Positions 4,164 to 59,238 are shown, numbered from the stretch's first letter. The stretch is 64,000 bases of DNA from Minisyncoccota bacterium (GCA_041674285.1 JBAYVZ010000004.1:21913-85912); one strand, 5' to 3'. Notes: generated by a model from the letters alone, not told the origin. Numbers and translations are program-made.

Positions 4164-4347
4164 TGTCTTTTTTATAAAAAAATAATACTAGATACTGTCT
4201 TTTTGTGTGTCCATTATACACCTAAAATAGTTTCTAGCAACTAGACATGCAAGGCAAAAAAAGGTGGTCAGTATAGGTTATTTAAAGTACTAAAATCTAG
4301 CGCTCAAGCACTAGATTTATGATATAATTAGCATATAAATTTATGGT

Positions 4348-4468
4348 CCCGTTAGAAGTCATTTATGTCAGATCACGCACGGGAATAAATATTATTTTTT
4401 GAGTTATATTTTGATTTTATTATTTATAATTATGTACGATAATCTAAAGATTATCTACTTCTAACGGG
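4348..4468. repeat. Palindrome-bounded element, copy A: 12-bp perfect terminal inverted repeats CCCGTTAGAAGT / ACTTCTAACGGG enclosing a 97-bp AT-rich core with an internal 7-bp-stem/TAAA-loop hairpin; the 3' arm abuts the ftsK ATG
   Basis: 4348-4359 cccgttagaagt; 4457-4468 acttctaacggg; ATG of ftsK at 4469. Internal hairpin gataatc-taaa-gattatc at 4438-4455. Related copies at 22561-22677, 39291-39408 and 20736-20805; solo arm at 38027-38036. Confidence 0.7.
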
Positions 4469-6709
4469 ATGGCAAAAAAAGACATTGAAGATGAATTTGA
4501 AGACGATGAAGAATTCGAAGATGACGCTCCCATCCGCAGAAATTCCAGTAACGGAAAGAGGAAACCAGGGCCCAAAAAAGGATCAAAGCATCGCAGAAAA
4601 GTCGAACTAAAAGATGAAACCCGACAAAGTATTTGGGGTGTAGTTTTTTTTGTTTTCGCAATATTAATAATATTATCAATTTTTCACATAGGAGGTATCG
4701 CAGGTGATTTCTTGATGCAAGTATTAGGATCGTTCCTAGGCATTGGATACTACTTGCTCCCCGTAGTTTTAGGAGTACTCGGCGTATCATTTATGAGACG
4801 AGGCAGGCCAGAAGTTGCTACTCTGCATGCGATAGTTGGAGCTACTCTCATACTCTCTGTATTAGGTATTTGCGACATCACAGCTAACGGCGCAGGAGAA
4901 TCTACAAATCTCATATGGGGTGGATACCTAGGTAGTATCGTCGCATGGCCATTCATAAAATTATTCCGCGAGATCGGAGGCATCCTAGTCCTAGGAACTG
5001 TACTGATTGTATCCCTACTCGTACTCTTTGACGAGCGCCCAAACCTCATGCAAATCTGGGACAAGATAGTCGCATTCTTCAAGCAAGATATTCGCATAGA
5101 AAACAGTAATCAAGAATCTACCGCAGTAGAAGAAAACGAAGCAGAAGATTCTGCTCCTTTGAAAAAGATAAAACCACTAGAAGAGGAGTATGCGGAGACA
5201 GAGGAAGAGATGGAGCTAATAGAAAAACCTTTACCAAAATCCAAAAAATTTGTATCAAAAGCTTACACACCTCCCCCACTAACTCTCCTAGAAAAAGATA
5301 GCGGAAAGGCAAATGTCGGAGACACAAAATCAAACGTAAATATCATACAAAAAACTCTATTGAATTTTGGTATCCCAGTGGAGATGGACGAAGTAACAGT
5401 TGGACCTACTGTTACTAGATACGCACTCAAACCCGCTCAGGGGGTAAAGCTATCTCGTATAGTAGGACTCCAAAATGACCTAGCCCTATCTCTCGCTGCT
5501 CACCCTATACGTATCGAGGCACCTATCCCAGGTAAATCTCTAGTAGGTATAGAGATCCCAAACAAGGCAAAATCAACAGTCGGAATGGCGACGCTCCTAG
5601 CAGACGACAAGTTCCAAAACGCCCCAAAGCCATTAATGATTGCGTTGGGTCGAGGACTCTCTGGCAAGGCCCTATTCGGCAACCTAGCCAAGATGCCTCA
5701 TGCACTTATCGCTGGAACTACAGGCTCAGGAAAATCAGTCACAATCCACTCTGTCATAGTGTCTCTGTTATACAGGAATGGCCCAGAAGATTTACGATTT
5801 ATCATGGTGGATCCAAAGCGCGTAGAGCTCACCCTTTACAACAAGATCCCTCACCTACTCACACCTGTAATCACAGACCCAAAGAAGACAATCCTAGCCC
5901 TCAAATGGGCAGCAAAAGAGATGGACCGTCGATATGACCTGCTAGAGTCTCATTCTGTTAAAGATATTACCAGTTACCACGAAAATATCCTGGCAAAAGA
6001 CAAGAGTGGTGAATTGGAGCGTATGCCGTATATAGTCATCATTATCGATGAGTTGGCAGATATTATGCAGACATACCCAAGAGAGCTCGAGAGCGGTATC
6101 GTACGCCTCGCTCAGATGTCTCGTGCTGTCGGTATACACCTCATACTATCTACTCAGCGCCCATCTGTGAACGTCATCACAGGTCTCATCAAAGCTAATG
6201 TCCCTACTCGTATTGCCCTCCAAGTAGCATCCCAGATTGACTCTCGTACAATTCTAGATCAAGCAGGAGCTGAAAAATTGCTAGGTGCCGGAGATATGCT
6301 ATACGCAGGCGCAGAGATGAGTCAGCCAGAGCGTCTACAATCAGCATTCATATCAGAAAATGAAGTGAAGAAGGTGGTAGAATACCTAAAAGATGCATAT
6401 ATGGACGAATTACCAGATACTATCGAGCTATCTGGTTCGATAGAAAATGGCAACAACCTATTCAACGGCAGTCTGACAGATGAAGGTGGCGATGATGACC
6501 TATATGAAGACGCGAGGCAAATAGTGATTGAAACTGGAAAAGCCTCTACCTCATACCTACAGAGAAAGCTAGGAGTCGGATACGCTCGTGCAGCAAAACT
6601 GATAGATATGCTAGAAGACAGAGGTATAGTCGGTCCAGCCAATGGATCAAAACCTCGTGATGTATTAGAAAGACCAGTCGATCATATAGGTAGCGAAGAA
6701 CAAATCTAA
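4469..6709 (+). CDS. ftsK: DNA translocase FtsK/SpoIIIE
   Basis: N-terminal TM helices; Walker A AGTTGSGKSVTIHSVIVSLL, motor domain, and C-terminal gamma (winged-helix) domain YLQRKLGVGYARAAKLIDMLEDRGIVGP. Confidence 0.92.
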   Translation: MAKKDIEDEFEDDEEFEDDAPIRRNSSNGKRKPGPKKGSKHRRKVELKDETRQSIWGVVFFVFAILIILSIFHIGGIAGDFLMQVLGSFLGIGYYLLPVVLGVLGVSFMRRGRPEVATLHAIVGATLILSVLGICDITANGAGESTNLIWGGYLGSIVAWPFIKLFREIGGILVLGTVLIVSLLVLFDERPNLMQIWDKIVAFFKQDIRIENSNQESTAVEENEAEDSAPLKKIKPLEEEYAETEEEMELIEKPLPKSKKFVSKAYTPPPLTLLEKDSGKANVGDTKSNVNIIQKTLLNFGIPVEMDEVTVGPTVTRYALKPAQGVKLSRIVGLQNDLALSLAAHPIRIEAPIPGKSLVGIEIPNKAKSTVGMATLLADDKFQNAPKPLMIALGRGLSGKALFGNLAKMPHALIAGTTGSGKSVTIHSVIVSLLYRNGPEDLRFIMVDPKRVELTLYNKIPHLLTPVITDPKKTILALKWAAKEMDRRYDLLESHSVKDITSYHENILAKDKSGELERMPYIVIIIDELADIMQTYPRELESGIVRLAQMSRAVGIHLILSTQRPSVNVITGLIKANVPTRIALQVASQIDSRTILDQAGAEKLLGAGDMLYAGAEMSQPERLQSAFISENEVKKVVEYLKDAYMDELPDTIELSGSIENGNNLFNGSLTDEGGDDDLYEDARQIVIETGKASTSYLQRKLGVGYARAAKLIDMLEDRGIVGPANGSKPRDVLERPVDHIGSEEQI

Positions 6710-11264: not shown

Positions 11265-11391
11265 AAATTGATTATATTACTCTTACTAAAAAACACCCCG
11301 CGGGTGTATGTAAATACATAATACGCCTTTTATCCCATAAAGTCAATATAAAGAAAAAACCTCCCAAATGGAGGTTTTTTTCTTTATGTAT

Positions 11392-19000: not shown

Positions 19001-20296
19001 CTATTTTCCTCTCTTAAAAACCCAAAATAATATTAATAAATAGAAAATAACCAACATTAATAATGAAAATTTATATACAGTAACACTAGCAAATGGTAGT
19101 GAGGCAAATATCTGTATAACTTTTAAAATATAAGAAAGTAGTATATTTGAAACCCCACCAAATAAAGAGGATAATCCAATCCCCAAAAAACCAGCCAAGC
19201 CAGAGATAAATGAGAACAGCATCGCTAGTGGAATAAAAGGTAGTATAAATATATTTGCGGGGAAAGAAACAAAAGACAGTATTCCACTACTATATAGTAG
19301 CAGTGGGAGTACTGCTATTTGCGCAGCGATAGTAGTGGAGGCTATTTCTCGTATACCAAATCGTGCAGGTATCAAGAATACCCAAGACACCACCATAGGT
19401 GTAATATATAAAATACCAAAAGTAGCAACAAAAGAAAGTTGAAAAGATATATCAGTAACAACTCGCGGATCATACGCAAACATAATAAGACCTGCTATTA
19501 TCAGGGCCCTACTAGCATCATAATTCCTCCCAGATATCCTACCGAGCAATGCGATGATAGCCATTACCCCCGCCCGGACAGCAGATGCCCCAGACCCAGC
19601 CATGACAACAAATAAAATTATGACAAAAACACCCAAACCCAGAGATATAGCCATCGAGAAAATAATACCGAAAACTTTGACTACAGAGTTCGCAACGATA
19701 GTCACATTGTACCCAGAGAGTGCGATGATATGTATCGTTCCAGTAGTCACAAAATCATTGCGCATCTTTTCGCTAAAATTCCCTTTTACTCCTAAGATCA
19801 ATCCATTAGCCAAGTCGCTACTAGGATGACCGATAGCAAGATTGATATTTTCTACAAAATTATTTTTTAATTTAAATAAATATTTTTTAATCATACTCCC
19901 CTGATCATGAGACACCACGTCCACCTCTGCATACTGCACAGTAAAATAAACATCTCGATTTGCAAGATATCTCTCATAATTAAATTCCTTGCCTGTATTT
20001 GTAATAAAATTCTCTGGAGTTTCTAATGATCCCTTTACATAAATCTCGTCTCCATACTCTACTTTAGTCTCAAGATTAGCAACTACTAGGATATTGATAT
20101 CTGTATTGATAGGATTTACAGTCAATCTCTGATTATTGACTCTTACATCTGGCTGATCCACAACGATACCGTGGAACGATACGACCTTCCCCACACTATC
20201 AAAATACCCACTCGGAGGAGTAGGTATAAAATACAAAAAGCGTATGAGTGCTATAGATAAGAGTATTATTACAATTATTATTTCACGAGTTCGCAT
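19001..20296 (-). CDS. ComEC/Rec2-family DNA-uptake channel protein (DUF4131 + competence domain; no metallo-beta-lactamase domain)
   Basis: N-terminal TM, OB-like periplasmic segment (VVSFHGIVVDQPDVRVNNQRLTVNP...), then a polytopic competence domain. The short form is common in small genomes. Confidence 0.6.
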   Translation of the reverse strand: MRTREIIIVIILLSIALIRFLYFIPTPPSGYFDSVGKVVSFHGIVVDQPDVRVNNQRLTVNPINTDINILVVANLETKVEYGDEIYVKGSLETPENFITNTGKEFNYERYLANRDVYFTVQYAEVDVVSHDQGSMIKKYLFKLKNNFVENINLAIGHPSSDLANGLILGVKGNFSEKMRNDFVTTGTIHIIALSGYNVTIVANSVVKVFGIIFSMAISLGLGVFVIILFVVMAGSGASAVRAGVMAIIALLGRISGRNYDASRALIIAGLIMFAYDPRVVTDISFQLSFVATFGILYITPMVVSWVFLIPARFGIREIASTTIAAQIAVLPLLLYSSGILSFVSFPANIFILPFIPLAMLFSFISGLAGFLGIGLSSLFGGVSNILLSYILKVIQIFASLPFASVTVYKFSLLMLVIFYLLILFWVFKRGK

Positions 20297-20832
20297 ACTC
20301 CTTTACTTGAAAAACTTGTAGCTATTTGATCAGCGCGTTCATTGTAGATATGACCGCTGTGGCCTTTTACTTTTTCCCATGAGAGCTTCCCTTGATATCC
20401 ACGTACGAGGCCGATGAGTTCTTGCCATAGGTCCTGGTTCAAGACTGGCTTTTTATTGGCAGTTCGCCATCCATTTTTTTCCCAGTTTGCCACCCAAGAA
20501 TTTACGCCACCTAATACATAGGCAGAATCAGCGCAGATATTCACCTCGGGGAAACTTTTTAGACTAGATAAATATCGTAGCGTCTCAATCACGCCTTTTA
20601 ACTCCATTCGATTGTTTGTAGTGGCTTTTTCGTATCCACCGAGCTCGTATACTATTTTATCCCCTTCTACCATGACAGCACCGTACCCTCCAGGACCAGG
20701 ATTCCCTAGTGAAGATCCGTCTGTATATACATCAACCCTGTTAGAAGCCGCCCCCGATAGTAATCGGGTGCTACGGTCACCTTGGGGCGACCTGCTTCTA
20801 ACAGGGTCAATTTTTTTTATATTCATATTCAT
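20278..20832 (-). CDS. rnhA: Ribonuclease HI, with a ~32-aa N-terminal extension that is encoded by a palindrome-bounded element
   Basis: VDVYTDGSSLGNPGPGGYGAV...ELKGVIETL...ICADSAYV...WEKVKGHSGHIYNERADQIA is a canonical RNase H1 fold. There is no in-frame ATG/GTG/TTG between the element and VDVYTDG, so translation probably starts at ATG 20832. Confidence 0.85.
   Translation of the reverse strand: MNMNIKKIDPVRSRSPQGDRSTRLLSGAASNRVDVYTDGSSLGNPGPGGYGAVMVEGDKIVYELGGYEKATTNNRMELKGVIETLRYLSSLKSFPEVNICADSAYVLGGVNSWVANWEKNGWRTANKKPVLNQDLWQELIGLVRGYQGKLSWEKVKGHSGHIYNERADQIATSFSSKGVCELVK
20736..20805. repeat. Palindrome-bounded element, copy D (13-bp perfect IR CCCTGTTAGAAGC / GCTTCTAACAGGG, GC-rich 44-bp core), lying inside the 5' coding region of rnhA
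   Basis: 20736-20748 ccctgttagaagc and 20793-20805 gcttctaacaggg. The arms differ from copies A-C by a single inserted T. Confidence 0.6.
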
Positions 20833-20862
20833 ATTTGCATTGTATCAGAAATGTACTCCCAA

Positions 20863-22557
20863 TTAAACTATGTCAACAATACGCAAACGGAGCTCTGTGC
20901 GCCCTGCAAAGAAGCTTTTTTCAAAGGTAGCTAGGAGATTTATTCTATCCCCATCATTTAATTTAAAAGTCTCGCGAGTTTTAAAGAATGCGATAGCTTT
21001 AATTGTTCGTCGTCTTGAATCTAGAAATACAAGTTCAAGATGATTTTTTTCTTTTCCAAATTCTTTTAATCCAGCGATTTGAATATTTTCAAATTTGAAA
21101 ATTGGCTTTGGATTACCCATCCCAAACGGTGCCATCTTTTCTATAACTTTATAATTATCATTATTTACATCATCAAGAGTGATTGATGCATCTATCATAT
21201 ACGAATTATTATTTTCTTCTGTGTCTTCTGTTTTATTTGAAATAATATTTGAGTGTACAATATTTAATCTCTCTTCAAGGAAATGAACCTCTGTGTGAGA
21301 GACAGCGAATCCTCCTGCCCCCACATGACCTCCGAATTCAAGTAAGCTATTTTCAGGTAATCCGGTCATCAGTTCTACAACATTTACAGACCCCCATGTA
21401 CGACAAGATCCACGAATAGTATCACTACCCTCTTGTCCCCAGACGAATACTGGCTTTTTGTATTCTTCAGCAATTTTAGATGCCACGAGTCCGAGCACTC
21501 CTACTCGCCAATCAGGATTACCTATCACTATTATTTCTTTTTCTTCTCGGGCTTGCATCTTGTGCTTCACATCTTTCATAATGTGCGCAACTATTGTTTT
21601 TCTCTCTGTATTTATTTTGTCCAGATGAGATGCGAGAGTTTTTGCTTGTACGAGATCCGTAGTTGAGAGAAGTTCGAATGCACGCATCGGACTATCCATA
21701 CGACTGGCAGCATTGAGCTTTGGTGCAATAGTAAAACCGACATCATCTTCAATGATATTTTTTGGATCTACATTCGCCTTCTTTAACAATTCAGCCAGTC
21801 CTGGACGACGAGCTTTTTGTAAAACTTTCAAACCATAAAATGCTAATACTCGATTCTCATGTAGCAGTGGCACTTGATCAGCAATAGTAGCGAGTCCTGC
21901 CATATCCAGTAACCATTTCTCCCAGCCATTTTGAATATTCCAATACTCTCCGTATTTTTTTATTAATCCTTGTACGAGCTTGAATGCGAGTCCTGCCCCA
22001 CAGAGCATATCATCCGGATAGCTACAATCACTCTGTTTTGGATTGATGATCGCATAAGCCTTTGGTATATGCTCGTGCGGAAGATGGTGATCTGTGATGA
22101 TCACGTCTATACCATTGGCCGTAGCGGTCGCCACCTCTTCAACTGCTGTGATACCTAGATCAAAAGTGATGACGAGTTTTACATCTGTCTTTATAAATTC
22201 ATCTACGGCTTCTTTGTTTAAACCATACCCTTCGAGGTGTCTGTCTGGTATATATACTAGGAAATTCTCATATCCGATCTTTGTAAAAAAATCGTGCATT
22301 ATCACAGCAGCAGGGATACCATCGCAATCATAATCACTGTAAACGACTATTTTTTCTTTTGCTTCTACTGCTTCGAATATGCGTACACAGGCACGCTCCA
22401 TATCTTTTAATAGATACGGATCATATATATCAGTCTCATAATTAGGATTTAGGAACTTGTCGGCATCAGATGCAGATATTCCCCTATTTCTCAAAAGTAT
22501 CTCTAGTAGTTCGGCATGGTTTGGCATACCTGCAATTGTAACATATAATAGATACAT
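20863..22557 (-). CDS. recJ: Single-stranded-DNA-specific exonuclease RecJ
   Basis: DHH motifs VVYSDYDCDGIPAAVIMHDFF and ITDHH; DHHA1 GGHVGAGGF; C-terminal OB domain. Confidence 0.9.
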   Translation of the reverse strand: MYLLYVTIAGMPNHAELLEILLRNRGISASDADKFLNPNYETDIYDPYLLKDMERACVRIFEAVEAKEKIVVYSDYDCDGIPAAVIMHDFFTKIGYENFLVYIPDRHLEGYGLNKEAVDEFIKTDVKLVITFDLGITAVEEVATATANGIDVIITDHHLPHEHIPKAYAIINPKQSDCSYPDDMLCGAGLAFKLVQGLIKKYGEYWNIQNGWEKWLLDMAGLATIADQVPLLHENRVLAFYGLKVLQKARRPGLAELLKKANVDPKNIIEDDVGFTIAPKLNAASRMDSPMRAFELLSTTDLVQAKTLASHLDKINTERKTIVAHIMKDVKHKMQAREEKEIIVIGNPDWRVGVLGLVASKIAEEYKKPVFVWGQEGSDTIRGSCRTWGSVNVVELMTGLPENSLLEFGGHVGAGGFAVSHTEVHFLEERLNIVHSNIISNKTEDTEENNNSYMIDASITLDDVNNDNYKVIEKMAPFGMGNPKPIFKFENIQIAGLKEFGKEKNHLELVFLDSRRRTIKAIAFFKTRETFKLNDGDRINLLATFEKSFFAGRTELRLRIVDIV

Positions 22558-22560
22558 GAT

Positions 22561-22677
22561 CCCGTTAGAGATTTGTTTGTAATATTTCTAATTATTGGGA
22601 TAATTTAAATTATCGTCGCATTTTTTACTAGATATTAATTAGATACGGTAATGTAAACATTACCTATCTCTAACGGG
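22561..22677. repeat. Palindrome-bounded element, copy B (IR CCCGTTAGAGAT / ATCTCTAACGGG) filling the divergent recJ / HIT intergenic region; both start codons abut its ends
   Basis: 22561-22572 and 22666-22677. HIT ATG at 22678; recJ ATG (minus strand) at 22555-22557, 3 nt from the left arm. Internal hairpin ggtaatg-taaa-cattacc. Confidence 0.7.
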
Positions 22678-22992
22678 ATGAATGAAAATTGTATTTTTTG
22701 TAAGATTATAAGCAATGAAATCCCATCATCAAAAGTATATGAAGATGATAAATTCTTGGCTTTTTTAGACATCCATCCTGTTTCTAATGGGCACACCCTG
22801 TTAATACCCAAATCACATCATGAATGGATGGTTAATGCTCCAGATGAATTAATATCAGAAATATACAAAATGGCAAAAAAATTGATGATAGAGATCAAAG
22901 AGAAAAATAAATGTGAATATGTAAAACTATCTGTTATAGGTAAAGACGTGCCACACTTCCACATACACCTAATACCTGAATATAATAAATAA
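22678..22992 (+). CDS. HIT-family (histidine triad) nucleotide hydrolase
   Basis: CIFCKII...HPVSNGHTLLIPKSH...VPHFHIHLIP (HxHxHxx triad). Confidence 0.88.
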   Translation: MNENCIFCKIISNEIPSSKVYEDDKFLAFLDIHPVSNGHTLLIPKSHHEWMVNAPDELISEIYKMAKKLMIEIKEKNKCEYVKLSVIGKDVPHFHIHLIPEYNK

Positions 22993-31278: not shown

Positions 31279-31794
31279 TTATTTTAGTCGTCCGGGGTGA
31301 TAACCACCCTCCTCTTCATATTTTTCTTTTTTACTCTCTTCTTCTGGTGTTATAAACTTACCTTTTTCTTCCAGAGTTCTCTGCATCCACAATCTGTATA
31401 ATTCACTAGCATGCATAGTATCGGTAGATATAAACATTGGAACATCGTACGAATGCAATTCACCAAGGAAAACAGTTAATCGTTCTGATAAATCAGAAGT
31501 AGTAGTCAACATAAGCATATACTGATCTACATCTTCTAGTACTCCGTGCCATGGATACACCGACTCAACGGGCCACAAATCTCCACACACTGCCATATGA
31601 TTCTCTACTGCGGACCGGGCCAGATCACGCGCCTCGTCCCTATCTCTGCATGTAGTATACACAAACACGGCACCTTCTGAATCTTTATTTATTTTATCTA
31701 TAATCATTGATTCTGCGGAATCACATCGCGCAAGTCGATTTAGCGCGATGCTCTTCAAATTAATAATAATTAAATCACTTCCTGCTGATAACAC
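31279..31794 (-). CDS. cutA: CutA1-like divalent-cation tolerance protein (start probably at the internal MIIDKINKD Met)
   Basis: VFVYTTCRDRDEARDLARSAVENHMAVCGDLWPVESVYPWHGVLEDVDQYMLMLTTTSDLSERLTVFLGELHSYDVPMFI follows the CutA trimer-fold pattern (...SxYxWxG.IxE..E..L..KT...L...v...HpYe.P). The annotated 5' end overlaps the upstream Cys-rich gene by 25 nt. Confidence 0.55.
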   Translation of the reverse strand: MLSAGSDLIIINLKSIALNRLARCDSAESMIIDKINKDSEGAVFVYTTCRDRDEARDLARSAVENHMAVCGDLWPVESVYPWHGVLEDVDQYMLMLTTTSDLSERLTVFLGELHSYDVPMFISTDTMHASELYRLWMQRTLEEKGKFITPEEESKKEKYEEEGGYHPGRLK

Positions 31795-33482
31795 TTCTCA
31801 CAATAAATAACCTCTGGTCGGTCTGGAGCGTAGCTAGTCTGGAATTCATTATCACAACCTTCGTGCATACATTTTCTGTTCCAGAGCTTTAAAGGTGTTC
31901 TTTTTGAAAATCTTTCTTTGTGACGACACTGATAACACATCCTAGGTATCGGAATATTGAATCTTTTGTAAAAGGTTAATTCATCTCGAGTTAGACGAAA
32001 TGCCCCAGAGCAACGATCGGATCCAGGGAATGTATCGCAAGATATTATTTCTTGCAGAATATCGAGGGAGGTATCTATTATTGAATCAGGAATTTGCTCT
32101 GTTTTAATTGTGGGATTATGATTTTGATTATCTTTATCTCTATATAAATAACCATTGCTAATGGTATCCTCTTTAGATAAAGGATAGAAGTAATTAGCGA
32201 TAGTCTCATTATAGGCAAATGGTGAAAATTCTATTGGGAAAAATTCTCCATATTTATACACCCTACCCTTTTTATCAACATATGGCATATCAATCATATG
32301 CTTTTTAATTTTACCAACCATATCAAAATATTCTTCTTTTGAATATTGTTTATTTAAAATACAATATGATTTATTTCTAAGACCAATACACCCAAATAAA
32401 TCATGCGAATTATAACAATTAAAAGAATATTCTACATTACTTGAGTTATAAACAACATTTGAAAAATTACAATTTGTGCCCCCTACTCCGGAGTCACAAG
32501 ACTCAAAACTATTTTCTAGCAGTCCAATAGCATTACAATAATAACAATCAAAAATATTTTCAGCTGCCCAGTACAAATATTTAGTATTTTTAACATTACC
32601 AGAAGCATCAAATATATGCTGACTATCAACAACGCCACTGAGGTCATTCCCTGTAGCATTATGACAATTAATCAACGCAGCATATTTATGAATTGAATTT
32701 AATTTTAATTCTTCAAAATCTTTTTTTAGTTTCTGAATTGTATTATAACTACCCAGATCATATTGTTTTATTTTTTCAAAATACTCCTCTTTTGAATATT
32801 GAATATTATTAAAACAATAGCTCTTGTTGCGGAGATTAGACGACATAAAACAATTCACACAACCCTTACAGTCATATAGGAAATAAGAGTCAGTTGATGA
32901 ATTTGTTTTTTCACAATAAAAAATTTTGTAAGAATCTACACAGTAAATATCCTGATAACAAAACTCACTATTGTGAACAACATACAAATCAGAAGAATCT
33001 TTAACTTTTGTAATAGAATCAGAATACATCGTTCTTTCATTTTTCCAACAAGCAGAACATAGATAACAGTCATAATTTTCTTCTGCTACATTACAATAAT
33101 CACTATTAACAGATTTTGAATTTGATAGGGCCTGAAATGGAACAACATCACGCAGAGCACGCCATTGTGAGAAAAAATCAACAGAAAAATCAAAATCACG
33201 TCCATAGTCAAATGGATCCCATTGGTCACCCCACCAATATTTTTGATCTACAATATTCATCTTTACATCTGGGTGATATATAGAGATTAAATCTTTCCCC
33301 GTCACACTATCTGGACGCCTATATAGAGCGTGAGTATTACGCCAAGCAAAACGTCTTTGATGTGAACAATCCGGGCAAAATGTAGGTGGTGGGACTTTTA
33401 TCTTGTCATAAAACGCAAAATCCTCTGGCTCTATCGTGAAATCCTGCAGGCAGTTCTGACATTGACGTGCTTCTTTATTCAT
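31770..33482 (-). CDS. Cysteine-rich zinc-ribbon repeat protein, paralog 1 (uncharacterised family; 570 aa, ~40 Cys)
   Basis: N-terminal CQNC...FYDKIKVPPPTFCPDC; C-terminal CYQCRH...C...YAPDRPEVIYCEKCYQQEVI; internal duplicated block ...C.GC.NCFMSSNLRNKSYCFNNIQYSKEEYF... / ...GCIGLRNKSYCILNKQYSKEEYF...YVDKKGRVYKYGEFFP. No signal peptide or TM. Confidence 0.6.
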   Translation of the reverse strand: MNKEARQCQNCLQDFTIEPEDFAFYDKIKVPPPTFCPDCSHQRRFAWRNTHALYRRPDSVTGKDLISIYHPDVKMNIVDQKYWWGDQWDPFDYGRDFDFSVDFFSQWRALRDVVPFQALSNSKSVNSDYCNVAEENYDCYLCSACWKNERTMYSDSITKVKDSSDLYVVHNSEFCYQDIYCVDSYKIFYCEKTNSSTDSYFLYDCKGCVNCFMSSNLRNKSYCFNNIQYSKEEYFEKIKQYDLGSYNTIQKLKKDFEELKLNSIHKYAALINCHNATGNDLSGVVDSQHIFDASGNVKNTKYLYWAAENIFDCYYCNAIGLLENSFESCDSGVGGTNCNFSNVVYNSSNVEYSFNCYNSHDLFGCIGLRNKSYCILNKQYSKEEYFDMVGKIKKHMIDMPYVDKKGRVYKYGEFFPIEFSPFAYNETIANYFYPLSKEDTISNGYLYRDKDNQNHNPTIKTEQIPDSIIDTSLDILQEIISCDTFPGSDRCSGAFRLTRDELTFYKRFNIPIPRMCYQCRHKERFSKRTPLKLWNRKCMHEGCDNEFQTSYAPDRPEVIYCEKCYQQEVI

Positions 33483-35949: not shown

Positions 35950-37995
35950 TTAAAAGAAATTAAAAATTAAACCAAAAAATGTTGTAATATTATGCCACAC
36001 AACCCTTGTGATTGCGGGTATTTTAGATACAAACGGTGCAGAACTCGCACTTGCTACTAGGTTATTTTTTGCTGGCACAGGACTATCCACAATATCATTC
36101 CTAACGACAGGTGTTATCTTTTTTACTTCTTTATTTGGTTTTTTTACTTCTTCTTTTTTTATTTCTTTTTTAGCTTCTTGAATGACTGGAGTAATCGGTA
36201 TAATTTTTTCTTGAACAACAGGAATGATAACAGCAGGAATAATTTCCACTTTATTTTCACCTGAAGTTTTTACTATTTCTGTGACTGCAGGCTTCTCAAA
36301 GTCAGACAGTATGTCTATCCATGATTTGAGTGATTCTGCTGTTAGCGCATAAGAGGTAGCCCAGACACGTGAATCTACATCGCTACCTATATCCCCTACA
36401 CCACCATCACTTTTCTGTTGTGATGATACATAATTTCTCGCATTAGACAAAGCAGATGCAAATTCAGATCCGAGTGATAGTGCCTGTATAGCCCAGCTTG
36501 TAGAAGATACATTGTCCCCTATACGCCCATCAGAAGATTGATTGCTGGTTAGATAAATATAAGCTTTGTCTATATAATCTGAGACTCCATTTTTATTTTT
36601 AAAAGGAGACAATGCCATTATCGCAGCAGATGTCATATCAACACTATTATCCCAAGACCCATTTGAGTATTGTTTAGTTTTTATAAAATCAATAGTATTG
36701 GCGATTATCTCATCTTTATATGAATACCCTGCTTTTTTCAAAACGATCAAGCCAAAGATGTCATCATTATCCAGGTTCGCATCCCCTATCTGAACTCCAT
36801 CAAATTTTCCTACAATTTTTGAGATATAGTCTACGTTTGTACCGCTATATGGATTTATACCGAGAGCCATCAGGGCCATCGCATGGCGCTCATTGTCAGT
36901 CACAGTGCTTGATGTAAAATTATTTGATGTTAGATATACAGCGATGCTTTCAATCAGAGCTGAGTCACCAGTAGATCCAATAGCGACAGCCCCCCAGTCC
37001 GTATACAATGATGTACCCAAAGATCCATCTGATTTTTTATTGGCATTTAAAAAAACTACTGCATTTTCTTTTGAGAAAGTTACTACAACAGGAGCACTAT
37101 TTGAACCACCAGAAGACACAGGCTCCGATACAGACACAGAATAAGATGGAAAATAATAATCCTCTGATACTCCTATATTGTATGCACCTGGACTTGAGAA
37201 AGAAAGATTTGCACTCCCCATATCATCTACCAACGTAGTTGATATTACGGTTGGATTCCATGGATCATTCGGATTTGTCTGGGTTATGCCGATATTCACC
37301 CCGGTACGCACCACCCATGTATCGTCTGTATAATTATAAGATTTTGCCTGTGCAGTTATGGACCCAGTAGTTGTGATTGTATTAGTATCTAAGTCTACCT
37401 TGTATGGACTACCAAAATACAAACCAATATTTTCTCCTCCTGAGAGAACAGTCGCATCGATACTTGTCCAAGGGCTAGCACCTCCTACTACATACTGCCA
37501 ATTATCACACACTTCTCCGGATGAATTTATATTTAAACATTTCAAATAAAAAGAAGAAAAAGAATCATAGTACTGCAGACTAGAAAGTGAGAAAGAATCT
37601 TCTGATTGATCGAGAGTGTATAGCACACCGAGCACACTCCGAGAATTCACAGAGTGAGATACTCCCACATTATCTAGTATATCTATATTCCCTTCTGGAG
37701 GTAGAGCAATATCCCCACTATACACAACGTCCGCACCATTACGAATAAATATATTTTCATACAAAATTGGTGCAGGTTCTTCAGCTTGATTTTGCTCTAC
37801 CGGAGGCTGTTCTTCTGTGGGGATTTCTTGTACCGGAGACTGCTCTTCTAGTGGGGCTGGCGTTGAATTCTGAGTCTCTTCTACTGGCGGATTTCCAGTA
37901 TTCTGATCTGTCTGAGTAGAATCTTCTGCATATACAAAAAATCCTGAGAAAATAAAACCGAGTATTATTAAGATAGAAAATATATTTTTTTTCAT
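35950..37995 (-). CDS. Secreted protein with Pro/Glu/Thr-rich linker and C-terminal prenyltransferase/squalene-oxidase-type alpha/alpha-toroid repeats (likely start at MKKNIFS, position 37995)
   Basis: Signal peptide MKKNIFSILIILGFIFSGFFVYA. Repeats KQYSNGSWDNSVDMTSAAIMAL / NQSSDGRIGDNVSSTSWAIQALS / QQKSDGGVGDIGSDVDSRVWATSYALT fit the QxxxDGSW-type toroid repeat. The 16-codon N-extension in the track ORF contains a solo element arm (CCCGTTAGGA). Confidence 0.6.
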   Translation of the reverse strand: MKKNIFSILIILGFIFSGFFVYAEDSTQTDQNTGNPPVEETQNSTPAPLEEQSPVQEIPTEEQPPVEQNQAEEPAPILYENIFIRNGADVVYSGDIALPPEGNIDILDNVGVSHSVNSRSVLGVLYTLDQSEDSFSLSSLQYYDSFSSFYLKCLNINSSGEVCDNWQYVVGGASPWTSIDATVLSGGENIGLYFGSPYKVDLDTNTITTTGSITAQAKSYNYTDDTWVVRTGVNIGITQTNPNDPWNPTVISTTLVDDMGSANLSFSSPGAYNIGVSEDYYFPSYSVSVSEPVSSGGSNSAPVVVTFSKENAVVFLNANKKSDGSLGTSLYTDWGAVAIGSTGDSALIESIAVYLTSNNFTSSTVTDNERHAMALMALGINPYSGTNVDYISKIVGKFDGVQIGDANLDNDDIFGLIVLKKAGYSYKDEIIANTIDFIKTKQYSNGSWDNSVDMTSAAIMALSPFKNKNGVSDYIDKAYIYLTSNQSSDGRIGDNVSSTSWAIQALSLGSEFASALSNARNYVSSQQKSDGGVGDIGSDVDSRVWATSYALTAESLKSWIDILSDFEKPAVTEIVKTSGENKVEIIPAVIIPVVQEKIIPITPVIQEAKKEIKKEEVKKPNKEVKKITPVVRNDIVDSPVPAKNNLVASASSAPFVSKIPAITRVVWHNITTFFGLIFNFF

Positions 37996-38048
37996 ATTAT
38001 TATTTATATTTAAATTGCGATCGCGGATCCTAACGGGATTCATATCCT

Positions 38049-38570
38049 TTAATTAATAAAGCCTTCTCTCTCCCATCGCACAGCATCACCCTCTTTCAAA
38101 AAATTCTTAGATATACCCACAGATGCTTTTTTATCATTTAAATAATACACCCAATATTTACCCTCATTACCTTGTAAACCATTGATACTATCTACAAACA
38201 TACCCATACCACTATAGTCTTTTGACGTAAAAGTAAAATATTTATTTTGAGTAGATAAATCTACCATTGATTGGTATATACTCACCCCTTCTGAGGCTTT
38301 GGATTCGTAAATTTTATCTTCAACGATTATTTTGATATTTATCTCATTTTTATCTATCTCTGGAATTATTTCTTTTACTTCTGAAATTTTATAAGTAACT
38401 TTTTTGGAACTTTCAGTTTTTCTCGGTACTAGCTTTGGGGCCTCTATTTTAGGTGTAGTATTCACTACTGATTCAGAGTTGCTAACTTTTTTAGAATACT
38501 GATAAAAGAAAGCAATAGACAGTATGACTAGGACAGCGAACAAAAATATTTTAATATATTTATTTTTCAT
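38049..38570 (-). CDS. DUF4430-domain protein (transcobalamin/intrinsic-factor beta-domain-like), membrane-anchored
   Basis: N-terminal TM; C-terminal ...GMFVDSINGLQGNEGKYWVYYLNDKKASVGISKNFLKEGDAVRWEREGF matches DUF4430 (GxxWxYxVNG...G...Y.L.dGD.I.W.Y). Confidence 0.6.
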   Translation of the reverse strand: MKNKYIKIFLFAVLVILSIAFFYQYSKKVSNSESVVNTTPKIEAPKLVPRKTESSKKVTYKISEVKEIIPEIDKNEINIKIIVEDKIYESKASEGVSIYQSMVDLSTQNKYFTFTSKDYSGMGMFVDSINGLQGNEGKYWVYYLNDKKASVGISKNFLKEGDAVRWEREGFIN

Positions 38571-38768
38571 AATAAATTAATGCATACTAAATAATAAAAA
38601 CTCCTGCACGGGCAGAAGTTTTTATATCCTTTTTTACAAAGAGATTTCCTGCTCGGGTGAACAATTTATATATTAAGATCGGACTTGTCTCTTGCGAGCT
38701 TTACCGTTGCGGCACAGTGGAGGAATATGACCTCACTTCCAAACATATAAACTTAAATTTTAAATGAA

Positions 38769-39290
38769 TTATACTCGGACAACTTCTGGAATAACAACGA
38801 CTGCAGTACTTTCCTTTTCTACCCATCTTTCAATCATTGGTGATAGAACTATAGCAAAGGATACATTTGAAAGCAAATGAATAGCCGTGAATGGTATCTG
38901 ACCTACTATTGCCGCCATGAATGATTGCCCAAAGAATAGTGGACCCATAGTCAAACCAGTAACAACATCAAATACGATAGTACTTACAAATGCGAATTTA
39001 GCATAGTTCTTCCATCCTGTACGATTCTGGAAATAGAAAGATGCAGCAAGACCAACTAATCCATAGGCAATACCTGCAAATAGTGTCCACACACCAAATC
39101 CTACTGTAAACATGTCGTACACAGCCACAGACAAGAAACCAAATAAAAATGAATACAATCTACCGTATGTACGAGACAACGGCATAACCATAGCCATCAG
39201 AGGCTCCAGATTTGGAGCCCTAAATGGTAGCAGTCGAACCAGTAGTCCAACTACAAACAGAGATATAATTTTGATTGGGTTTTTCTTCAT
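38769..39290 (-). CDS. Small polytopic membrane protein, ECF-transporter S-component-like (candidate cobalamin-specific CbrT-type)
   Basis: 173 aa, 5-6 TM, no soluble domains. Adjacent to DUF4430 and the toroid protein, which is a common ECF S-component context. Assignment by context and topology only. Confidence 0.4.
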   Translation of the reverse strand: MKKNPIKIISLFVVGLLVRLLPFRAPNLEPLMAMVMPLSRTYGRLYSFLFGFLSVAVYDMFTVGFGVWTLFAGIAYGLVGLAASFYFQNRTGWKNYAKFAFVSTIVFDVVTGLTMGPLFFGQSFMAAIVGQIPFTAIHLLSNVSFAIVLSPMIERWVEKESTAVVVIPEVVRV

Positions 39291-39408
39291 CCCGTTAGAA
39301 GTAGATACTCTTTAGAGTATCGTACATAATTTAACTAATAAACTCGAATATAACTAATTTATTCAAATAAAATCCGTAGCTAGAATAACATGCATGACTT
39401 CTAACGGG
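39291..39408. repeat. Palindrome-bounded element, copy C (IR CCCGTTAGAAGT / ACTTCTAACGGG) between nrdJ and the ECF-S-like gene; the left arm abuts that gene's ATG
   Basis: 39291-39302 and 39397-39408. Read on the minus strand it ends ...gatactc-taaa-gagtatc-t-acttctaacggg-ATG. Apart from compensatory stem changes it is nearly identical to the 3' end of copy A. Confidence 0.7.
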
Positions 39409-39426
39409 ATCATAAGTTTTTTTATC

Positions 39427-41796
39427 TTACACGATATCGCAAACTCCTGCAACACAAGCCAATTCTTTCTTTACCTCAGTCTCATCACGTAGTTCATAAG
39501 TCACGATCTTTGAGAAATCAAAGTCAGGCATGCGACTTGCGAGCTGTTCAAAGGTCTCTTTTGTTATCGCTTCATATGGAGCTAGCTGGTACACGTGATT
39601 TGAACGTGGTAGGAATGATAGTCCACCTACGATATCCCAGTTCTGATATAGCCAGTGCGCTACCTTGATCCATTCATTCTCCCCCACTGATATAGTCACA
39701 GATGGATTGTGCTCTGTATAATTTACCTTTACAACCTTCCAGTGCTCTAGCTGATCAATAGCAGATATATCATCTTTACATATCGCACCGTCTGGAGCTT
39801 TCATTGGGAATTCTAGAACAAAAGTATTTGCATCTTCTGCATTCTGCCCCACCTCTGCATGATATGGCACACCTTGGTCCTTCATCATTTTGAATAGTGA
39901 GTCTGTAGCAGAGATACGAACACGACGGATATAGTACGGAGCATGACGTGGGTGCATACCAGATGCACAATCCACAGTCTGAGATACAGTACCAGAAGGC
40001 TTCACTGCTGTGATACATGTAGATTCACTAACACCAAATTTCTTTGCATAAATCTTGTTTATACGGATAGCTTCTAGGCGGAGCTTTTCTAACATCTTTG
40101 CATCACGCGCCAAAGTCGAATCCCACTGACCAGTCACTGACACTCCTAGGAGTCTCTCCTCATCACAATTCTCCTTCCATTCCTTTGAAAGGTACCCGAA
40201 TTTTGTAAGTGTTGATTGATATGTTCCTAGAATTGTAGCGATACGGATCTTCTTCATCAGAGTCTTCTCTGTATCTTCTGCACGGGCTACAACTTCTGAA
40301 AGATTGCAGAACTGTTTTGATCGGAGGATAATCTCCCCACAAGGGTTTGTACCCATCTCTCCGATAAAGTCACGGGACTTTTCTACACGCCTCTTTGGTA
40401 GCGATGTATATAGTGATCCACGATTAAATATTCCACGCTCTCCTGTACCTGACTCCATAAGTGCAATCCACTCTCTTAGGAATTCTGTTTCTGTAGGTTT
40501 TGTATTGTATACAGCAGAGTTATTTGCGAGCATTCTCTGGCCTTCATTGTTCCAGAATTGACCATTCTTTGCATCACGCATGTCCTGATCATCTAGATCT
40601 GATAGTGAGATAAGTGCAGAACGACGTACTCCACCAGATACTACACACTCACCTATTTTACAGATGATATCGTGCGCATCGATATTGCGAAGATGTCTTC
40701 CTTGACGACGTAGGATACGTTCACGAGTAAAACCGAGTAGGTCTATCAATGGTTTTGGACCAGAGCTCTTGCCTCCCATGATCTTGAGACGTGCACCAGA
40801 AGGACGCAATAGAGAGAAATCGAAATCAACGTCCTCTCCGTTGAACCATGTCTTCATACCAAATACGAGTGCATCTGCCCAGCCCTCTTTTGTATCAGGA
40901 ACCACGTATGTAGGCTGCTTTTTGCCTACCTGAGTTTTGATCTGAGGAAGAGATTGAATATTCTGACTTTCGACAGAGAATCCTACTCCAGTACCACACA
41001 TAGATATGTAGACTATCTCACCAAAGTCTTGGAGCTTTGATGGTGCGATAAATGAACAATTGTACGCACATACATTTGTCTTCTCTGCTGCAGGTCCTGC
41101 GAATTGGAGTAGGCGCATTGATGGCATAGCTTCTTGCTTCAAAATACCTTCACGCACTTCTCCATACTCATCGACAGATAACATATCTCCGAGCTTTCCT
41201 TTCATGAATGACATATAGCGATCTACTGTCTCGATCCATGTCTCGCGTCTACCCTGCTCTTCGATCCATTTGGCATAAGTACGATAGTATACGAATTCAG
41301 AAAGTGGATTTCTGAAATATTTTTTACTTTCATCTGCGAGCTGCTTTACATGTGGAGGAACAGACATACTGTGTGATCGGAGACGAGCACGTTCTTCACG
41401 GTATAGGATGTAGTGCTTTGAAGTCTTTACATAATCAGAGAGCATGAGCTCCTGCTCTACGCTATCCTGGATACCCTCTACTGTAGGTACAAAGTTTTTG
41501 TACTTCTTTGCGATCTTTATCATGTCCATCAATACACGACTAGCCACTAGGTGAGCCTCTTCGATAGAGCCTTCTCCTGCTGCAAGCATAGCTTTATTAA
41601 TAGCATTCGTAATTTTTTCAATATCGAATGGAACAGTCGATCCATCACGACGTTGAACGCTTTTAATAAAATTATTCTTTATCTTTATCTCTGTTTTTTT
41701 CACAGGAGTTGCTTCTACTTTCTCTACAACCTCTACTTTTTTCGCGACCACTTTCACTTTTTTTGTAGCCTTAACTACTTTCTTTTTTGATGGCAT
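39427..41796 (-). CDS. nrdJ: Ribonucleotide reductase, class II (adenosylcobalamin-dependent), with N-terminal ATP-cone
   Basis: ATP-cone (VQRRDGSTVPFDIEKITNAINKA); active-site NPCGEI; C-terminal Cys pair CVAGVCDIV. The monomeric ~790-aa architecture has no separate beta-subunit gene, and there is no glycyl-radical motif. Confidence 0.8.
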   Translation of the reverse strand: MPSKKKVVKATKKVKVVAKKVEVVEKVEATPVKKTEIKIKNNFIKSVQRRDGSTVPFDIEKITNAINKAMLAAGEGSIEEAHLVASRVLMDMIKIAKKYKNFVPTVEGIQDSVEQELMLSDYVKTSKHYILYREERARLRSHSMSVPPHVKQLADESKKYFRNPLSEFVYYRTYAKWIEEQGRRETWIETVDRYMSFMKGKLGDMLSVDEYGEVREGILKQEAMPSMRLLQFAGPAAEKTNVCAYNCSFIAPSKLQDFGEIVYISMCGTGVGFSVESQNIQSLPQIKTQVGKKQPTYVVPDTKEGWADALVFGMKTWFNGEDVDFDFSLLRPSGARLKIMGGKSSGPKPLIDLLGFTRERILRRQGRHLRNIDAHDIICKIGECVVSGGVRRSALISLSDLDDQDMRDAKNGQFWNNEGQRMLANNSAVYNTKPTETEFLREWIALMESGTGERGIFNRGSLYTSLPKRRVEKSRDFIGEMGTNPCGEIILRSKQFCNLSEVVARAEDTEKTLMKKIRIATILGTYQSTLTKFGYLSKEWKENCDEERLLGVSVTGQWDSTLARDAKMLEKLRLEAIRINKIYAKKFGVSESTCITAVKPSGTVSQTVDCASGMHPRHAPYYIRRVRISATDSLFKMMKDQGVPYHAEVGQNAEDANTFVLEFPMKAPDGAICKDDISAIDQLEHWKVVKVNYTEHNPSVTISVGENEWIKVAHWLYQNWDIVGGLSFLPRSNHVYQLAPYEAITKETFEQLASRMPDFDFSKIVTYELRDETEVKKELACVAGVCDIV

Positions 41797-44277: not shown

Positions 44278-44281
44278 ATTT

Positions 44282-46036: not shown

Positions 46037-46077
46037 AAATATAAGTATACATTTCCAGATGATTTACACAATACATA

Positions 46078-46106
46078 ACAAAAAACCACCCAATGGGTGG
46101 TTTTTG
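46078..46106. terminator. Terminator hairpin aaaaaaccacccaatgggtggttttt (shared core with the 529-556 and 57486-57514 terminators)
   Basis: CCACCC-AAT-GGGTGG stem with flanking A/T runs. Confidence 0.55.
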
Positions 46107-46198
46107 TTTAGAATTATTTTCTTGATTCGATGATAGTTGTAGCCATCCCAAAGGAAAGAGTACTTCCTACGGGACAGGCATTCTGAGGTGTGAGTATA

Positions 46199-57435: not shown

Positions 57436-57485
57436 AAACACTTACAAGAGTGAGCATAACAGATTTAGGTCTTTTTTTCAATAAA

Positions 57486-57514
57486 AAATAAAACCACCCA
57501 ATGGGTGGTTTTAT
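57486..57514. terminator. Terminator hairpin aaaaccacccaatgggtggtttt downstream of rplS
   Basis: Identical core to the 46078-46106 terminator. Confidence 0.55.
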
Positions 57515-57517
57515 TTT

Positions 57518-58925: not shown

Positions 58926-59080
58926 TAAGTAAATATCCTTGTAGTGTATAAGATATAAACCGTACATACTGTAGTCAAGGTTTTGGTGTTAAATGTAGTA
59001 AATATACGCCCTTGTAGTGTATGTGATATAAACCGTACATACTGTAGTCAAGGTTTTGGTGTTAAATGTAGTAAATATAT
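58926..59080 (+). repeat. Two-and-a-half tandem ~72-bp direct repeats, each ending with the first 11 nt of tRNA-Arg (GCCCTTGTAGT) followed by a degenerate tRNA-like segment; the third unit runs into the intact tRNA
   Basis: Unit 58990-59062 taaatgtagtaaatatacgcccttgtagtgtatgtgatataaaccgtacatactgtagtcaaggttttggtgt. The preceding unit (58926-58989) is ~90% identical with a small deletion. The next unit (59063-) continues as gcccttgtagttaaatggatataactgcgg..., i.e. the real tRNA. Confidence 0.7.
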
Positions 59081-59152
59081 GCCCTTGTAGTTAAATGGAT
59101 ATAACTGCGGACTTCTAAGCCGTTATTGCAGGTTCGATTCCTGCCGAGGGCA
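59081..59152 (+). tRNA. tRNA-Arg (anticodon TCT), with a non-canonical A31:G39 pair
   Basis: GCCCTTGTAGTTAAATGGATATAACTGCGGACTTCTAAGCCGTTATTGCAGGTTCGATTCCTGCCGAGGGCA: acceptor 7 bp; D-stem GTTA/TAAC; anticodon loop CTTCTAA; T-arm GCAGG-TTCGATT-CCTGC. The A:G mismatch at the base of the anticodon loop lowers confidence in function. Confidence 0.6.
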
Positions 59153-59181
59153 CAAAGCAAAGTAACATACTTATATTTTTA

Positions 59182-59227
59182 GCGGACAAAAAAGCCGTTA
59201 TTGCAGGTTCGATTCCTGCCGAGGGCA
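59182..59227 (+). repeat. Duplicated 3' half of tRNA-Arg (anticodon stem through 3' end; loop replaced by CAAAAAA), 30 nt downstream of the intact gene: att-site-like scar
   Basis: gcggacaaaaaagccgttattgcaggttcgattcctgccgagggca. Identical to the tRNA from position 39 to the 3' end (agccg...gagggca) and in the 5' anticodon stem (gcgga). It lacks the acceptor 5' strand and the D-arm. Confidence 0.7.
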
Positions 59228-59238
59228 CAATATAAATA

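Follow-up and report, generated by a model that had tools for sequence, protein, structure and literature searches.

The rnhA locus and the element within it

The DNA analysed here, 64,000 nucleotides (nt) of one strand from a Minisyncoccota bacterium (GCA_041674285.1 JBAYVZ010000004.1:21913-85912; hereafter the window), carries on its minus strand rnhA, the gene for ribonuclease HI (RNase HI), in which a small palindromic element stands in frame between the start codon and the RNase H core. This layout, described by an initial annotation made from the sequence alone, is borne out by the sequence and the list of open reading frames (ORFs). The gene opens with eight codons (MNMNIKKI), followed directly by a perfect palindrome whose arms, ACCCTGTTAGAAGC (20807-20794) and GCTTCTAACAGGGT (20748-20735), enclose a 45-nt interior that is rich in G+C in an otherwise A+T-rich genome. 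The frame 3' of the element runs on into VDVYTDGSSLGNPGPGG, the canonical beginning of an RNase HI, the predicted read-through peptide across the end of the element being LLSGAASNR followed by VDVYTDGSSLGNPGPGGYGAVMVEGDK. Homologs of the protein with PF00075 were found at E values down to 1e-93, and the DEDD residues of the RNase H fold (D38, E77, D102 and D168) are invariant in the homolog alignment, with H158 also present. AlphaFold2, run with an 81-sequence alignment, gave an RNase H core with pLDDT >90 and a first strand from residue 32; residues 1-30 are of low confidence (pLDDT 45-58), and the element-encoded residues are predicted to form a floppy or disordered N-terminal segment before the first beta-strand. 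The same allele is found in a separate assembly (L002, run SRR6484325) and is thus not an assembly artefact.

Both in-frame ATGs of rnhA, at 20832 and 20826, lie 5' of the element, so that the initial annotation placed the start on the correct side but erred in calling ATG 20832 the only one. Its statement that the element is followed by no canonical start holds, as the first in-frame ATG, GTG or TTG on the 3' side is codon 54 (20673), past the catalytic Asp38. The approximately 32 residues that it ascribed to the element are an overestimate; alignment with an insert-less homolog and comparison with an empty site give 25, the element and one copy of its target-site duplication together adding 75 bp, or 25 codons (DPVRSRSPQGDRSTRLLSGAASNRV).

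The empty site comes from the closest homolog (P0001), an RNase H that is 94% identical, has no insert and begins MKKIDVYTDG. Its contig (L073) reads exactly AAAAAAATTGATGTATAT (also given as AAAAAAATTGATGTATATACAGACGG), while the filled site in the window reads AAAAAAATTGA, then 71 nt, then TTGATGTATAT (longer flank TTGATGTATATACAGACGG), with flanks identical to those of L073 and the DNA 3' of the insertion otherwise nearly identical. A covariance model of the element finds no copy anywhere in the 17.5 kb of L073, so that both the rnhA copy and a longer relative 1.8 kb away (copy B, described below) differ between two very close genomes. The gene order in L073, HIT-recJ-rnhA-comEC, matches that of the window.

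Four of the features by which a MITE (a miniature, inverted-repeat transposable element) is recognized are found here: small size and no transposase gene (71 nt; family range 50-135 nt), terminal inverted repeats (perfect arms of 13-14 nt in the window copy, and 97% of cells paired over 50 copies), a target-site duplication of fixed length (4 nt), and dispersed copies with filled and empty sites. The duplication is perfect over its 4 nt in 28 of 49 short copies of the family and has at most one mismatch in 45. It is mostly TNNA, with T at position 1 in 43-44 and A at position 4 in 42-44 of the 49, and is preceded by a purine in 42. The arm motif CCYGTTAGA occurs nine times in the window against 0.69 expected.

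As RNA, the element is predicted to fold into a three-way junction of an outer stem and two hairpins (-51.1 kcal/mol, z = -8.6), a stability reached by none of 200 shuffled sequences. The first hairpin is conserved in rnhA orthologs found by protein search rather than by a DNA pattern, and in the second, double (compensatory) changes affect five of eight pairs. A weak Rfam match of hairpin 2 to CRISPR-DR9 (E = 0.34) is probably coincidence. A search of the window at Rfam gathering thresholds returned only tRNAs and an AdoCbl riboswitch, with no intron or ribozyme at the element, and a permissive search of 20690-20860 gave as its best match a miRNA hairpin (E 0.13), taken as chance. An attC-like recombination site was considered and rejected, the arms running GTT...AAC outward-in, the reverse of attC.

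Conservation among rnhA orthologs follows the nucleotides. Five more RNase H homologs, 59-69% identical to the window protein (P0002, P0003, P0005, P0011 and P0024), carry the same 25 residues in the same place, and L017 holds a seventh insert-bearing ortholog. Five insert-bearing orthologs were compared as DNA: identity is 87-93% in the element (83-96% at third codon positions) and 59-73% in the rest of the gene, where third positions are saturated (36-60%). Compensatory changes occur both in the outer stem (CCCTG/CAGGG, TCCCG/CGGGA and CCACG/CGTGG) and in hairpin 2 (CCCGAT/ATCGGG and CCCGCT/AGCGGG). According to the initial annotation, an extension conserved in relatives at the level of amino acids, and not of nucleotides or structure, would be an ordinary protein domain; the third positions, the compensated stems and the presence of the same DNA in unrelated genes in both orientations point the opposite way, and the extension is, on this sequence evidence, a nucleic-acid element rather than an ordinary protein domain. 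On the question whether the extension is lineage-specific, for which it had proposed an alignment of the N-termini of relatives, the element is present in 7 of 122 close RNase H homologs, scattered over the tree, each beside a near neighbour without an insert. The duplications also differ between rnhA lineages (TTGA in the window, TAGA in L003 and L007), suggesting that a single permissive site was hit more than once.

The window genome appears to make wide use of leaderless mRNAs, in which translation begins at a 5'-terminal AUG. A TANNNT box ends 6 or 7 nt 5' of the ATG in 18 of 52 long ORFs of the window, against a background of 2-4 per position; the -10-like box is often TGnTAnAAT, and a minority of genes have a Shine-Dalgarno-like GGAGG instead. 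The rnhA gene has such an extended -10 box 6 nt before ATG 20832. A scan for the sigma-70 consensus near rnhA, which demands a -35 box, returned no promoter. With a leaderless mRNA starting at ATG 20832, the element would be preceded by 24 nt of coding sequence. An in-frame upstream ATG and an open frame through the element are present in every one of the seven rnhA genes that bear the insert, and translation most likely starts at ATG 20832 and runs through it. Of the two outcomes that the initial annotation had left standing, residues of the element forming part of the RNase H or translation starting non-canonically, the former is favoured by the -10 box, by copies in the middle of other genes and by lengths that keep the frame and are free of stops.

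Short copies inside genes and long forms at start codons

Metagenome contigs scanned for hairpin 1 yielded 64 loci and, after removal of duplicates, about 50 distinct copies with the same arms, whose source contigs look like those of bacteria of the candidate phyla radiation (CPR). The short copies measure 71 nt (29 copies), 68 nt (16) or 74 nt (one), that is 75, 72 or 78 bp with the duplication, while copies of 70, 72 and 75 nt are intergenic save for one ambiguous 70-nt copy (L071). A frame-preserving length is found in 43 of 44 copies within ORFs as against three of eight intergenic ones (Fisher p = 1.2e-4). The ORF copies have no stop codons in the frame used, and that frame is the same in 43 of the 44 copies in long ORFs: CCC GTT AGA AGC (PVRS) ... 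GCT TCT AAC GGG (ASNG). The rule holds in both orientations, 24 of the 43 being forward (PVRSRSPQGDRST..AASNG) and 19 reverse (PVRSRP..SATVTLGRPASNG), which yields two different peptides. The other frame, PLEA...LLTG, which 38 of 49 copies leave open without stops, is used at most once, although some 35% of the usable targets in the coding DNA of the window are in the corresponding phase (frame bias p about 2e-7). Elements with the same arms and other interiors, of 50 nt and of another 71-nt type, obey the same rules of length and frame.

The 43 in-frame, stop-free copies lie in more than 20 unrelated families identified with Pfam, the behaviour known from Rickettsia palindromic elements (RPE). 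Among the hosts are a UvrD-like helicase, FtsW/RodA, TsaD, a class-V aminotransferase, RNase R, GrpE, D-Ala-D-Ala ligase (Ddl), the gamma and epsilon subunits of ATP synthase, a release factor (RF), an RluA-type pseudouridine synthase, ArgRS, RsmH, Sua5/TsaC, PurD, MurB, PheT, PfkB, YidD and ribosomal protein L25; judged by sequence, the host genes are intact, conserved and mostly essential. Orthologs of Sua5, UvrD, RF and RsmH are occupied at the same sites, and in Sua5 and an unnamed protein a single site is occupied in opposite orientations in orthologous hosts. One UvrD-like site (DSLMIN...KLMTVHAS) has received elements of three types, the D type at 68 nt, one of 50 nt and a further one of 71 nt, in L011, L027 (354-404) and L054 (3668-3739). 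In L011, extra residues NGV beside the insertion resemble the footprint of an earlier copy.

Covariation across 50 copies is strong, with 96.4% of cells paired and double changes in 16 of 28 pairs, a result reached by none of 500 shuffles; control structures slid by 1-3 columns were 32-54% paired. The counts of G.T and A.C mismatches do not track the mRNA strand of the host, being independent of the orientation of the host gene, so that selection on the mRNA strand, considered as a candidate, shows no sign. Outside the metagenome contigs, a strict 27-nt pattern matched a single genome among the GTDB species representatives, a Paceibacterota metagenome-assembled genome that is the same as L005, and the element pattern had no match in IMG/VR viral contigs. 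A protein search with a 72-residue concatenation of three open frames gave six candidates, including the yidD and tsaD hosts, and missed known positives, so that it is uninformative on the unused frames. A phmmer search with a 30-residue element peptide returned three matches: an unrelated repeat protein (P0126), a repeat-derived ORF with RSPQGERGLK repeats (P0127) and a protein of 3231 residues with 11 matched stretches (P0125).

A second class of copies sits for the most part not within genes but on their start codons. Long-form copies A, B and C of the window (Table 1) share the terminal repeats of the short form around an A+T-rich interior of 90-100 nt that contains stops, and score 30-36 bits with the covariance model. 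Their ends are homologous to those of the short form beyond the 13-nt arms, and the short form looks like an internally deleted derivative of the long one, or the long form like a short one that has gained an interior. Of 16 long copies, from the window and from fetched loci together (L003, L018, L019, L027, L038, L041, L065 and L068), 12 end in an A that is also the first base of a long ORF's ATG. The end facing the gene is always the same, and the displaced original ATG lies with the duplication at the far end. Native promoters stand 6 nt before the ATG, and long insertions therefore push them some 120 nt away. The seat of the long forms in start codons of leaderless genes raises the separate question of how translation initiation recovers from the insertion. 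Boxes resembling a -10 are present in every long element, 20-45 nt ahead of the gene-proximal end, and our hypothesis is that the element itself probably provides a new promoter together with a short leader ending CUUCUAACGGGAUG.

The solo arm that the initial annotation had reported at the 38043 gene is real; it spans 38026-38038 and is the surviving distal end of a truncated long form, flanked by ATGAA on both sides, that has lost its proximal half, and the reading of MNPVRIRDR at 38043 as a spurious N-terminus is upheld by the flanking ATGAA copies, which point to a start at ATG 37995. The minus-strand ORF 35950-38043 is probably mis-started at 38043, its likely start being ATG 37995 (MKKNIFSILIILGF..., signal-peptide-like). 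The minus-strand recJ ORF as listed (start 22557, MYLLYVTIAG-MPNH...) is likewise probably too long, by ten codons that extend to the flank of copy B: orthologs begin MPNH, and a TGTTACAAT box (22535-22543) stands 7 nt before ATG 22527.

Table 1. Positions of rnhA, its element and the related long forms in the window
Feature	Position	Strand	Basis or remark
rnhA (RNase HI, 184 aa), in-frame element included	20278-20832	minus	ORF list, PF00075 homologs, invariant columns, AlphaFold2 core
Extended -10 box TGATACAAT	20839-20847	minus	TGATACAAT-GCAAAT-ATG; implies leaderless rnhA mRNA
Short-form mobile palindromic element, D type, 71 bp	20736-20806	minus	Covariance model 96.3 bits; exact empty site in L073
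Target-site duplication TTGA, upstream copy	20807-20810	minus	Filled against empty site; duplication statistics
5' terminal inverted repeat (gene orientation) CCCTGTTAGAAGC	20794-20806	minus	Read Pro-Val-Arg-Ser
Hairpin 1, GGTCGCC-CCAA-GGTGACC, with G.T pair	20775-20792	minus	Fold; most conserved part of the family
Hairpin 2, GC-A-CCCGAT-TACT-ATCGGG-G-GC	20750-20771	minus	Fold; sequence and length vary among copies, pairing kept
3' terminal inverted repeat GCTTCTAACAGGG	20736-20748	minus	Read Ala-Ser-Asn-Arg (Asn-Gly in most copies)
Target-site duplication TTGA, downstream copy	20732-20735	minus	Filled against empty site; duplication statistics
Long-form copy A, 123 bp	4347-4469	plus	Last A is the A of ftsK ATG 4469
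Long-form copy B, 119 bp	22560-22678	plus	Last A is the A of HIT gene ATG 22678; displaced original ATG 22556-22558
Long-form copy C, 120 bp	39290-39409	minus	Provides, with its end at 39290, the A in the start codon of an ECF S-component gene (38769-39290, minus)
Truncated long form (solo arm)	37996-38038	minus	Distal end only, between ATGAA (38043-38039) and ATGAA at 37995

Several further features of the window lie apart from these elements. The AdoCbl riboswitch match (38639-38766, minus; 50.5 bits, just at the Rfam threshold of 50) stands upstream of ORF 38049-38570, within a cluster (35950-41796) in which the ECF S-component is joined by a B12-dependent (class II-like) ribonucleotide reductase and by a protein weakly similar to cobalamin-binding proteins or SQHop cyclases, and which may be B12-related. 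Four near-identical palindromes, AAAAACCACCCAA(A)TGGGTGGTTTTT, at gene ends (527-559, 11351-11383, 46077-46109 and 57485-57517) resemble a shared intrinsic-terminator hairpin. A 73-nt tandem duplication that is 90% identical (58926-59071) and a repeat, 75 nt downstream, of the 3' 49 nt of tRNA-Arg(TCT) (92% identical; 59081-59230) suggest that a tRNA was partly duplicated or that an integration left a scar. A small gene family consists of three paralogous ORFs, each about 570-600 residues long (31770-33482, 42565-44355 and 44282-46036), which share DNA segments that are 70-78% identical (repeat families D1-D7).

Insertion, probable read-through and competing explanations

Taken together, it is in our judgement probable, and we hold it with some confidence, that the rnhA palindrome is a non-autonomous mobile element, a MITE of a family common in Paceibacteria-like CPR bacteria, which inserted in frame and is read through. 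Under this model, a transposase would insert the element at a staggered 4-bp cut in a target of the form R/TNNA/Y, here AAAATTGAT, duplicating TTGA. Short members, of 50, 68, 71 or 74 nt, would amount with the duplication to a multiple of three, and their arms would be read as Pro-Val-Arg-Ser ... Ala-Ser-Asn-Gly, free of stops, in either orientation; the result of an insertion in that phase would consequently be an added hydrophilic loop of 18-26 residues in a gene left unbroken. In rnhA, the ribosome would read the leaderless mRNA from ATG 20832 through the hairpin, the product being an RNase HI with 25 extra disordered residues just before the first beta-strand and an untouched catalytic core. 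That the enzyme tolerates the insertion, and what kind of transposase acts, we infer from the sequence; for an insertion sequence bounded by TCCCGTTAGAAGC with a 4-bp TNNA duplication, we take IS5, IS701 or IS1182-like and PIF/Harbinger-like DDE enzymes to be the candidates.

A number of points weigh against this reading. Translation through the element is deduced from the rules of length and frame, and a hairpin of -51 kcal/mol beginning 24 nt into a leaderless mRNA could be a hindrance to translation. Hairpin 1 was fixed by the search pattern, so that across the family only the outer stem and hairpin 2 are informative, its unbiased conservation being seen in the rnhA orthologs only. A search of some 0.5 Mb of fetched contigs for an autonomous partner, with the same terminal repeats flanking a transposase at a spacing of 0.4-4 kb, found none. 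Lastly, all five rnhA copies compared as DNA share a private subtype of hairpin 2 (CACCCG...CGGGGGCG) despite their scattered branches and different duplications, which simple random insertion does not explain. This shared subtype would fit a single ancient insertion into rnhA with vertical inheritance, which as the sole explanation is unlikely given the scattered positions on the tree, the insert-less close relatives and the different duplications.

The private subtype also speaks for an alternative that is compatible with translation, namely that the rnhA copy is old and the element is kept by selection on nucleic-acid structure, as a signal for RNA processing, stability or translation rate or as a protein-binding site in DNA. 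The high identity of the rnhA copies, at third positions too, in hosts saturated at synonymous sites, the compensatory changes that maintain the outer stem and hairpin 2, and the shared sites in orthologs of Sua5, UvrD, RF and RsmH are all in keeping with it. We nevertheless regard it as unlikely. A recently active family would also show high identity, the insert is confined to 7 of 122 close homologs that each have an insert-less neighbour, and the lack of both the rnhA copy and copy B in the 94%-identical relative indicates a recent gain; the TTGA and TAGA duplications argue for separate insertions, and the mismatch counts, independent of the mRNA strand, give no sign that an mRNA fold is selected. 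Another alternative would keep the element out of the protein altogether, by excision from the mRNA or by bypass between TTGA/ATTGA take-off and landing sites. Translational bypass elements, as in T4 gene 60 and the mitochondrial 'byps' of Magnusiomyces, are G+C-rich hairpin insertions in coding sequence between matching codons, and the very stable hairpin flanked by matching direct repeats, the position of long forms between two copies of a start codon, and the essential hosts, in which 25 extra residues might be harmful, would all suit such a mechanism. Bypassed elements, however, need not be in frame or stop-free, and removal would leave length and stops unconstrained, yet the copies in ORFs keep the frame and lack stops and the intergenic ones do not, which points to ordinary read-through; moreover, 71 nt is far too small for a self-splicing intron and Rfam offers no intron or ribozyme match (best E 0.13 or worse), so that we consider removal or bypass very improbable.

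Initiation of rnhA 3' of the element, at a non-canonical codon, would turn the element into a 5' leader and make the upstream ATG irrelevant. The idea draws on the long forms, in which the same arm directly precedes real start codons (CTTCTAACGGGATG); the corresponding codon is GTT in the window rnhA and ATA or GTA in orthologs, none of which is known as an efficient start. The leaderless promoter geometry favours ATG 20832, the upstream ATG and open frame are kept in all seven insert-bearing genes, and the element lies mid-gene in other hosts, all of which makes late initiation exceedingly unlikely. Finally, the high similarity of the 25 residues in P0002, P0003, P0005, P0011 and P0024 is what an ordinary lineage-specific N-terminal peptide or domain, kept for its function in the protein, would give. 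We attach virtually no credence to that view, which is refuted by synonymous sites conserved as well as non-synonymous ones, by the same DNA in more than 20 unrelated genes in both orientations and as two different peptides, and by the inverted repeats, the duplication and the empty site, to which the predicted disorder may be added.

Relation to known repeats and wider meaning

The nearest likeness to the in-frame MITE that we favour is with the RPE (Ogata et al. 2000, 2002), which, as summarised elsewhere (PMC10969869, PMC2229807), are small palindromic repeats with terminal repeats of about 12 nt, found in frame within a large number of conserved genes, unrelated to one another, in a reduced genome and giving a conserved peptide each; for a gmk fusion, both translation and activity were demonstrated (PMC2229807). 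As far as those descriptions of size, host and arms go (PMC2229807), the present element has no known sequence relation to RPE and is set apart by its host, Patescibacteria/CPR rather than Alphaproteobacteria, by its size of 50-74 nt as against 105-146 bp, by a clear 4-bp TNNA duplication where that of RPE is listed as uncertain, and by a single arm-defined frame in both orientations together with long non-coding sister forms in start codons. The Correia or NEMIS repeats of Neisseria offer a parallel for the two forms, the short species (107 bp) being open and fused in genes and the long one (155 bp) having stops in all frames and lying between genes; shared as well are terminal inverted repeats, a duplication and a transcript that forms a long stem-loop, and the long forms carry putative promoters near genes (PMC2229807). 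Their repeats are, however, 24-26 bp long with a TA duplication, and neither an exact seat in the start codons of leaderless genes nor adherence to one reading frame is reported for them. ERIC/IRU, YPAL and other enterobacterial MITEs are likewise small non-autonomous repeats with occasional in-frame fusions (Delihas 2007; PMC2229807), but intragenic fusion is exceptional there, whereas most of the short copies recovered here are inside conserved genes. With the RAYT-mobilised REP/REPIN sequences (PMC3733652) the element has in common a G+C-rich imperfect hairpin with GTAG before hairpin 2; REPs are extragenic and have neither terminal inverted repeats nor a target duplication, whereas this element is intragenic and has both, so that of their GTAG/CGTC-tagged hairpin organization only the GTAG is matched. 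This conserved GTAG (window 20750-20774 with hairpin 2; family alignment columns 34-63) is, probably by coincidence, as in one REP superfamily. A literature search, incomplete in its coverage so that earlier work may exist, returned no prior description of in-frame palindromic or MITE elements in CPR/Patescibacteria or of the DNA and peptide strings of this element, and the family is apparently undescribed: a probably translated, RPE-like intragenic MITE of an ultra-small bacterium of the CPR/Paceibacteria type.

The short and long forms could be one system that has become suited to life within coding regions and start codons in ultra-compact, mostly leaderless genomes. Short forms would then be 'stealth' insertions, made for translation in a single frame whichever way they point and perhaps selected for their fold; long forms, of fixed orientation, would land exactly in the start codons of leaderless genes, remake the ATG from their last base and exchange the native leaderless promoter for a promoter and leader that they bring along. 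We put this forward tentatively, as an idea that is doubtful in its entirety; if true, the long forms would be mobile expression cassettes that rewire the transcription and translation of essential genes.

Palindromic repeats that code for protein have so far been regarded as peculiar to Rickettsia and some of its relatives. An unrelated, smaller family of CPR bacteria that behaves in the same way suggests that selfish DNA fit for translation arises time and again in genomes with little room between genes. Its members would add loops of 18-26 residues to essential proteins such as tRNA synthetases, a release factor, ATP synthase subunits and TsaD/Sua5, and they create spurious N-termini and can lead gene callers, alignments and structure predictions astray in CPR genomes. 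The family keeps to strict rules, with element and duplication together divisible by three, one reading frame whichever the orientation, and TNNA as the target, and these yield testable predictions on what selection permits in essential genes.

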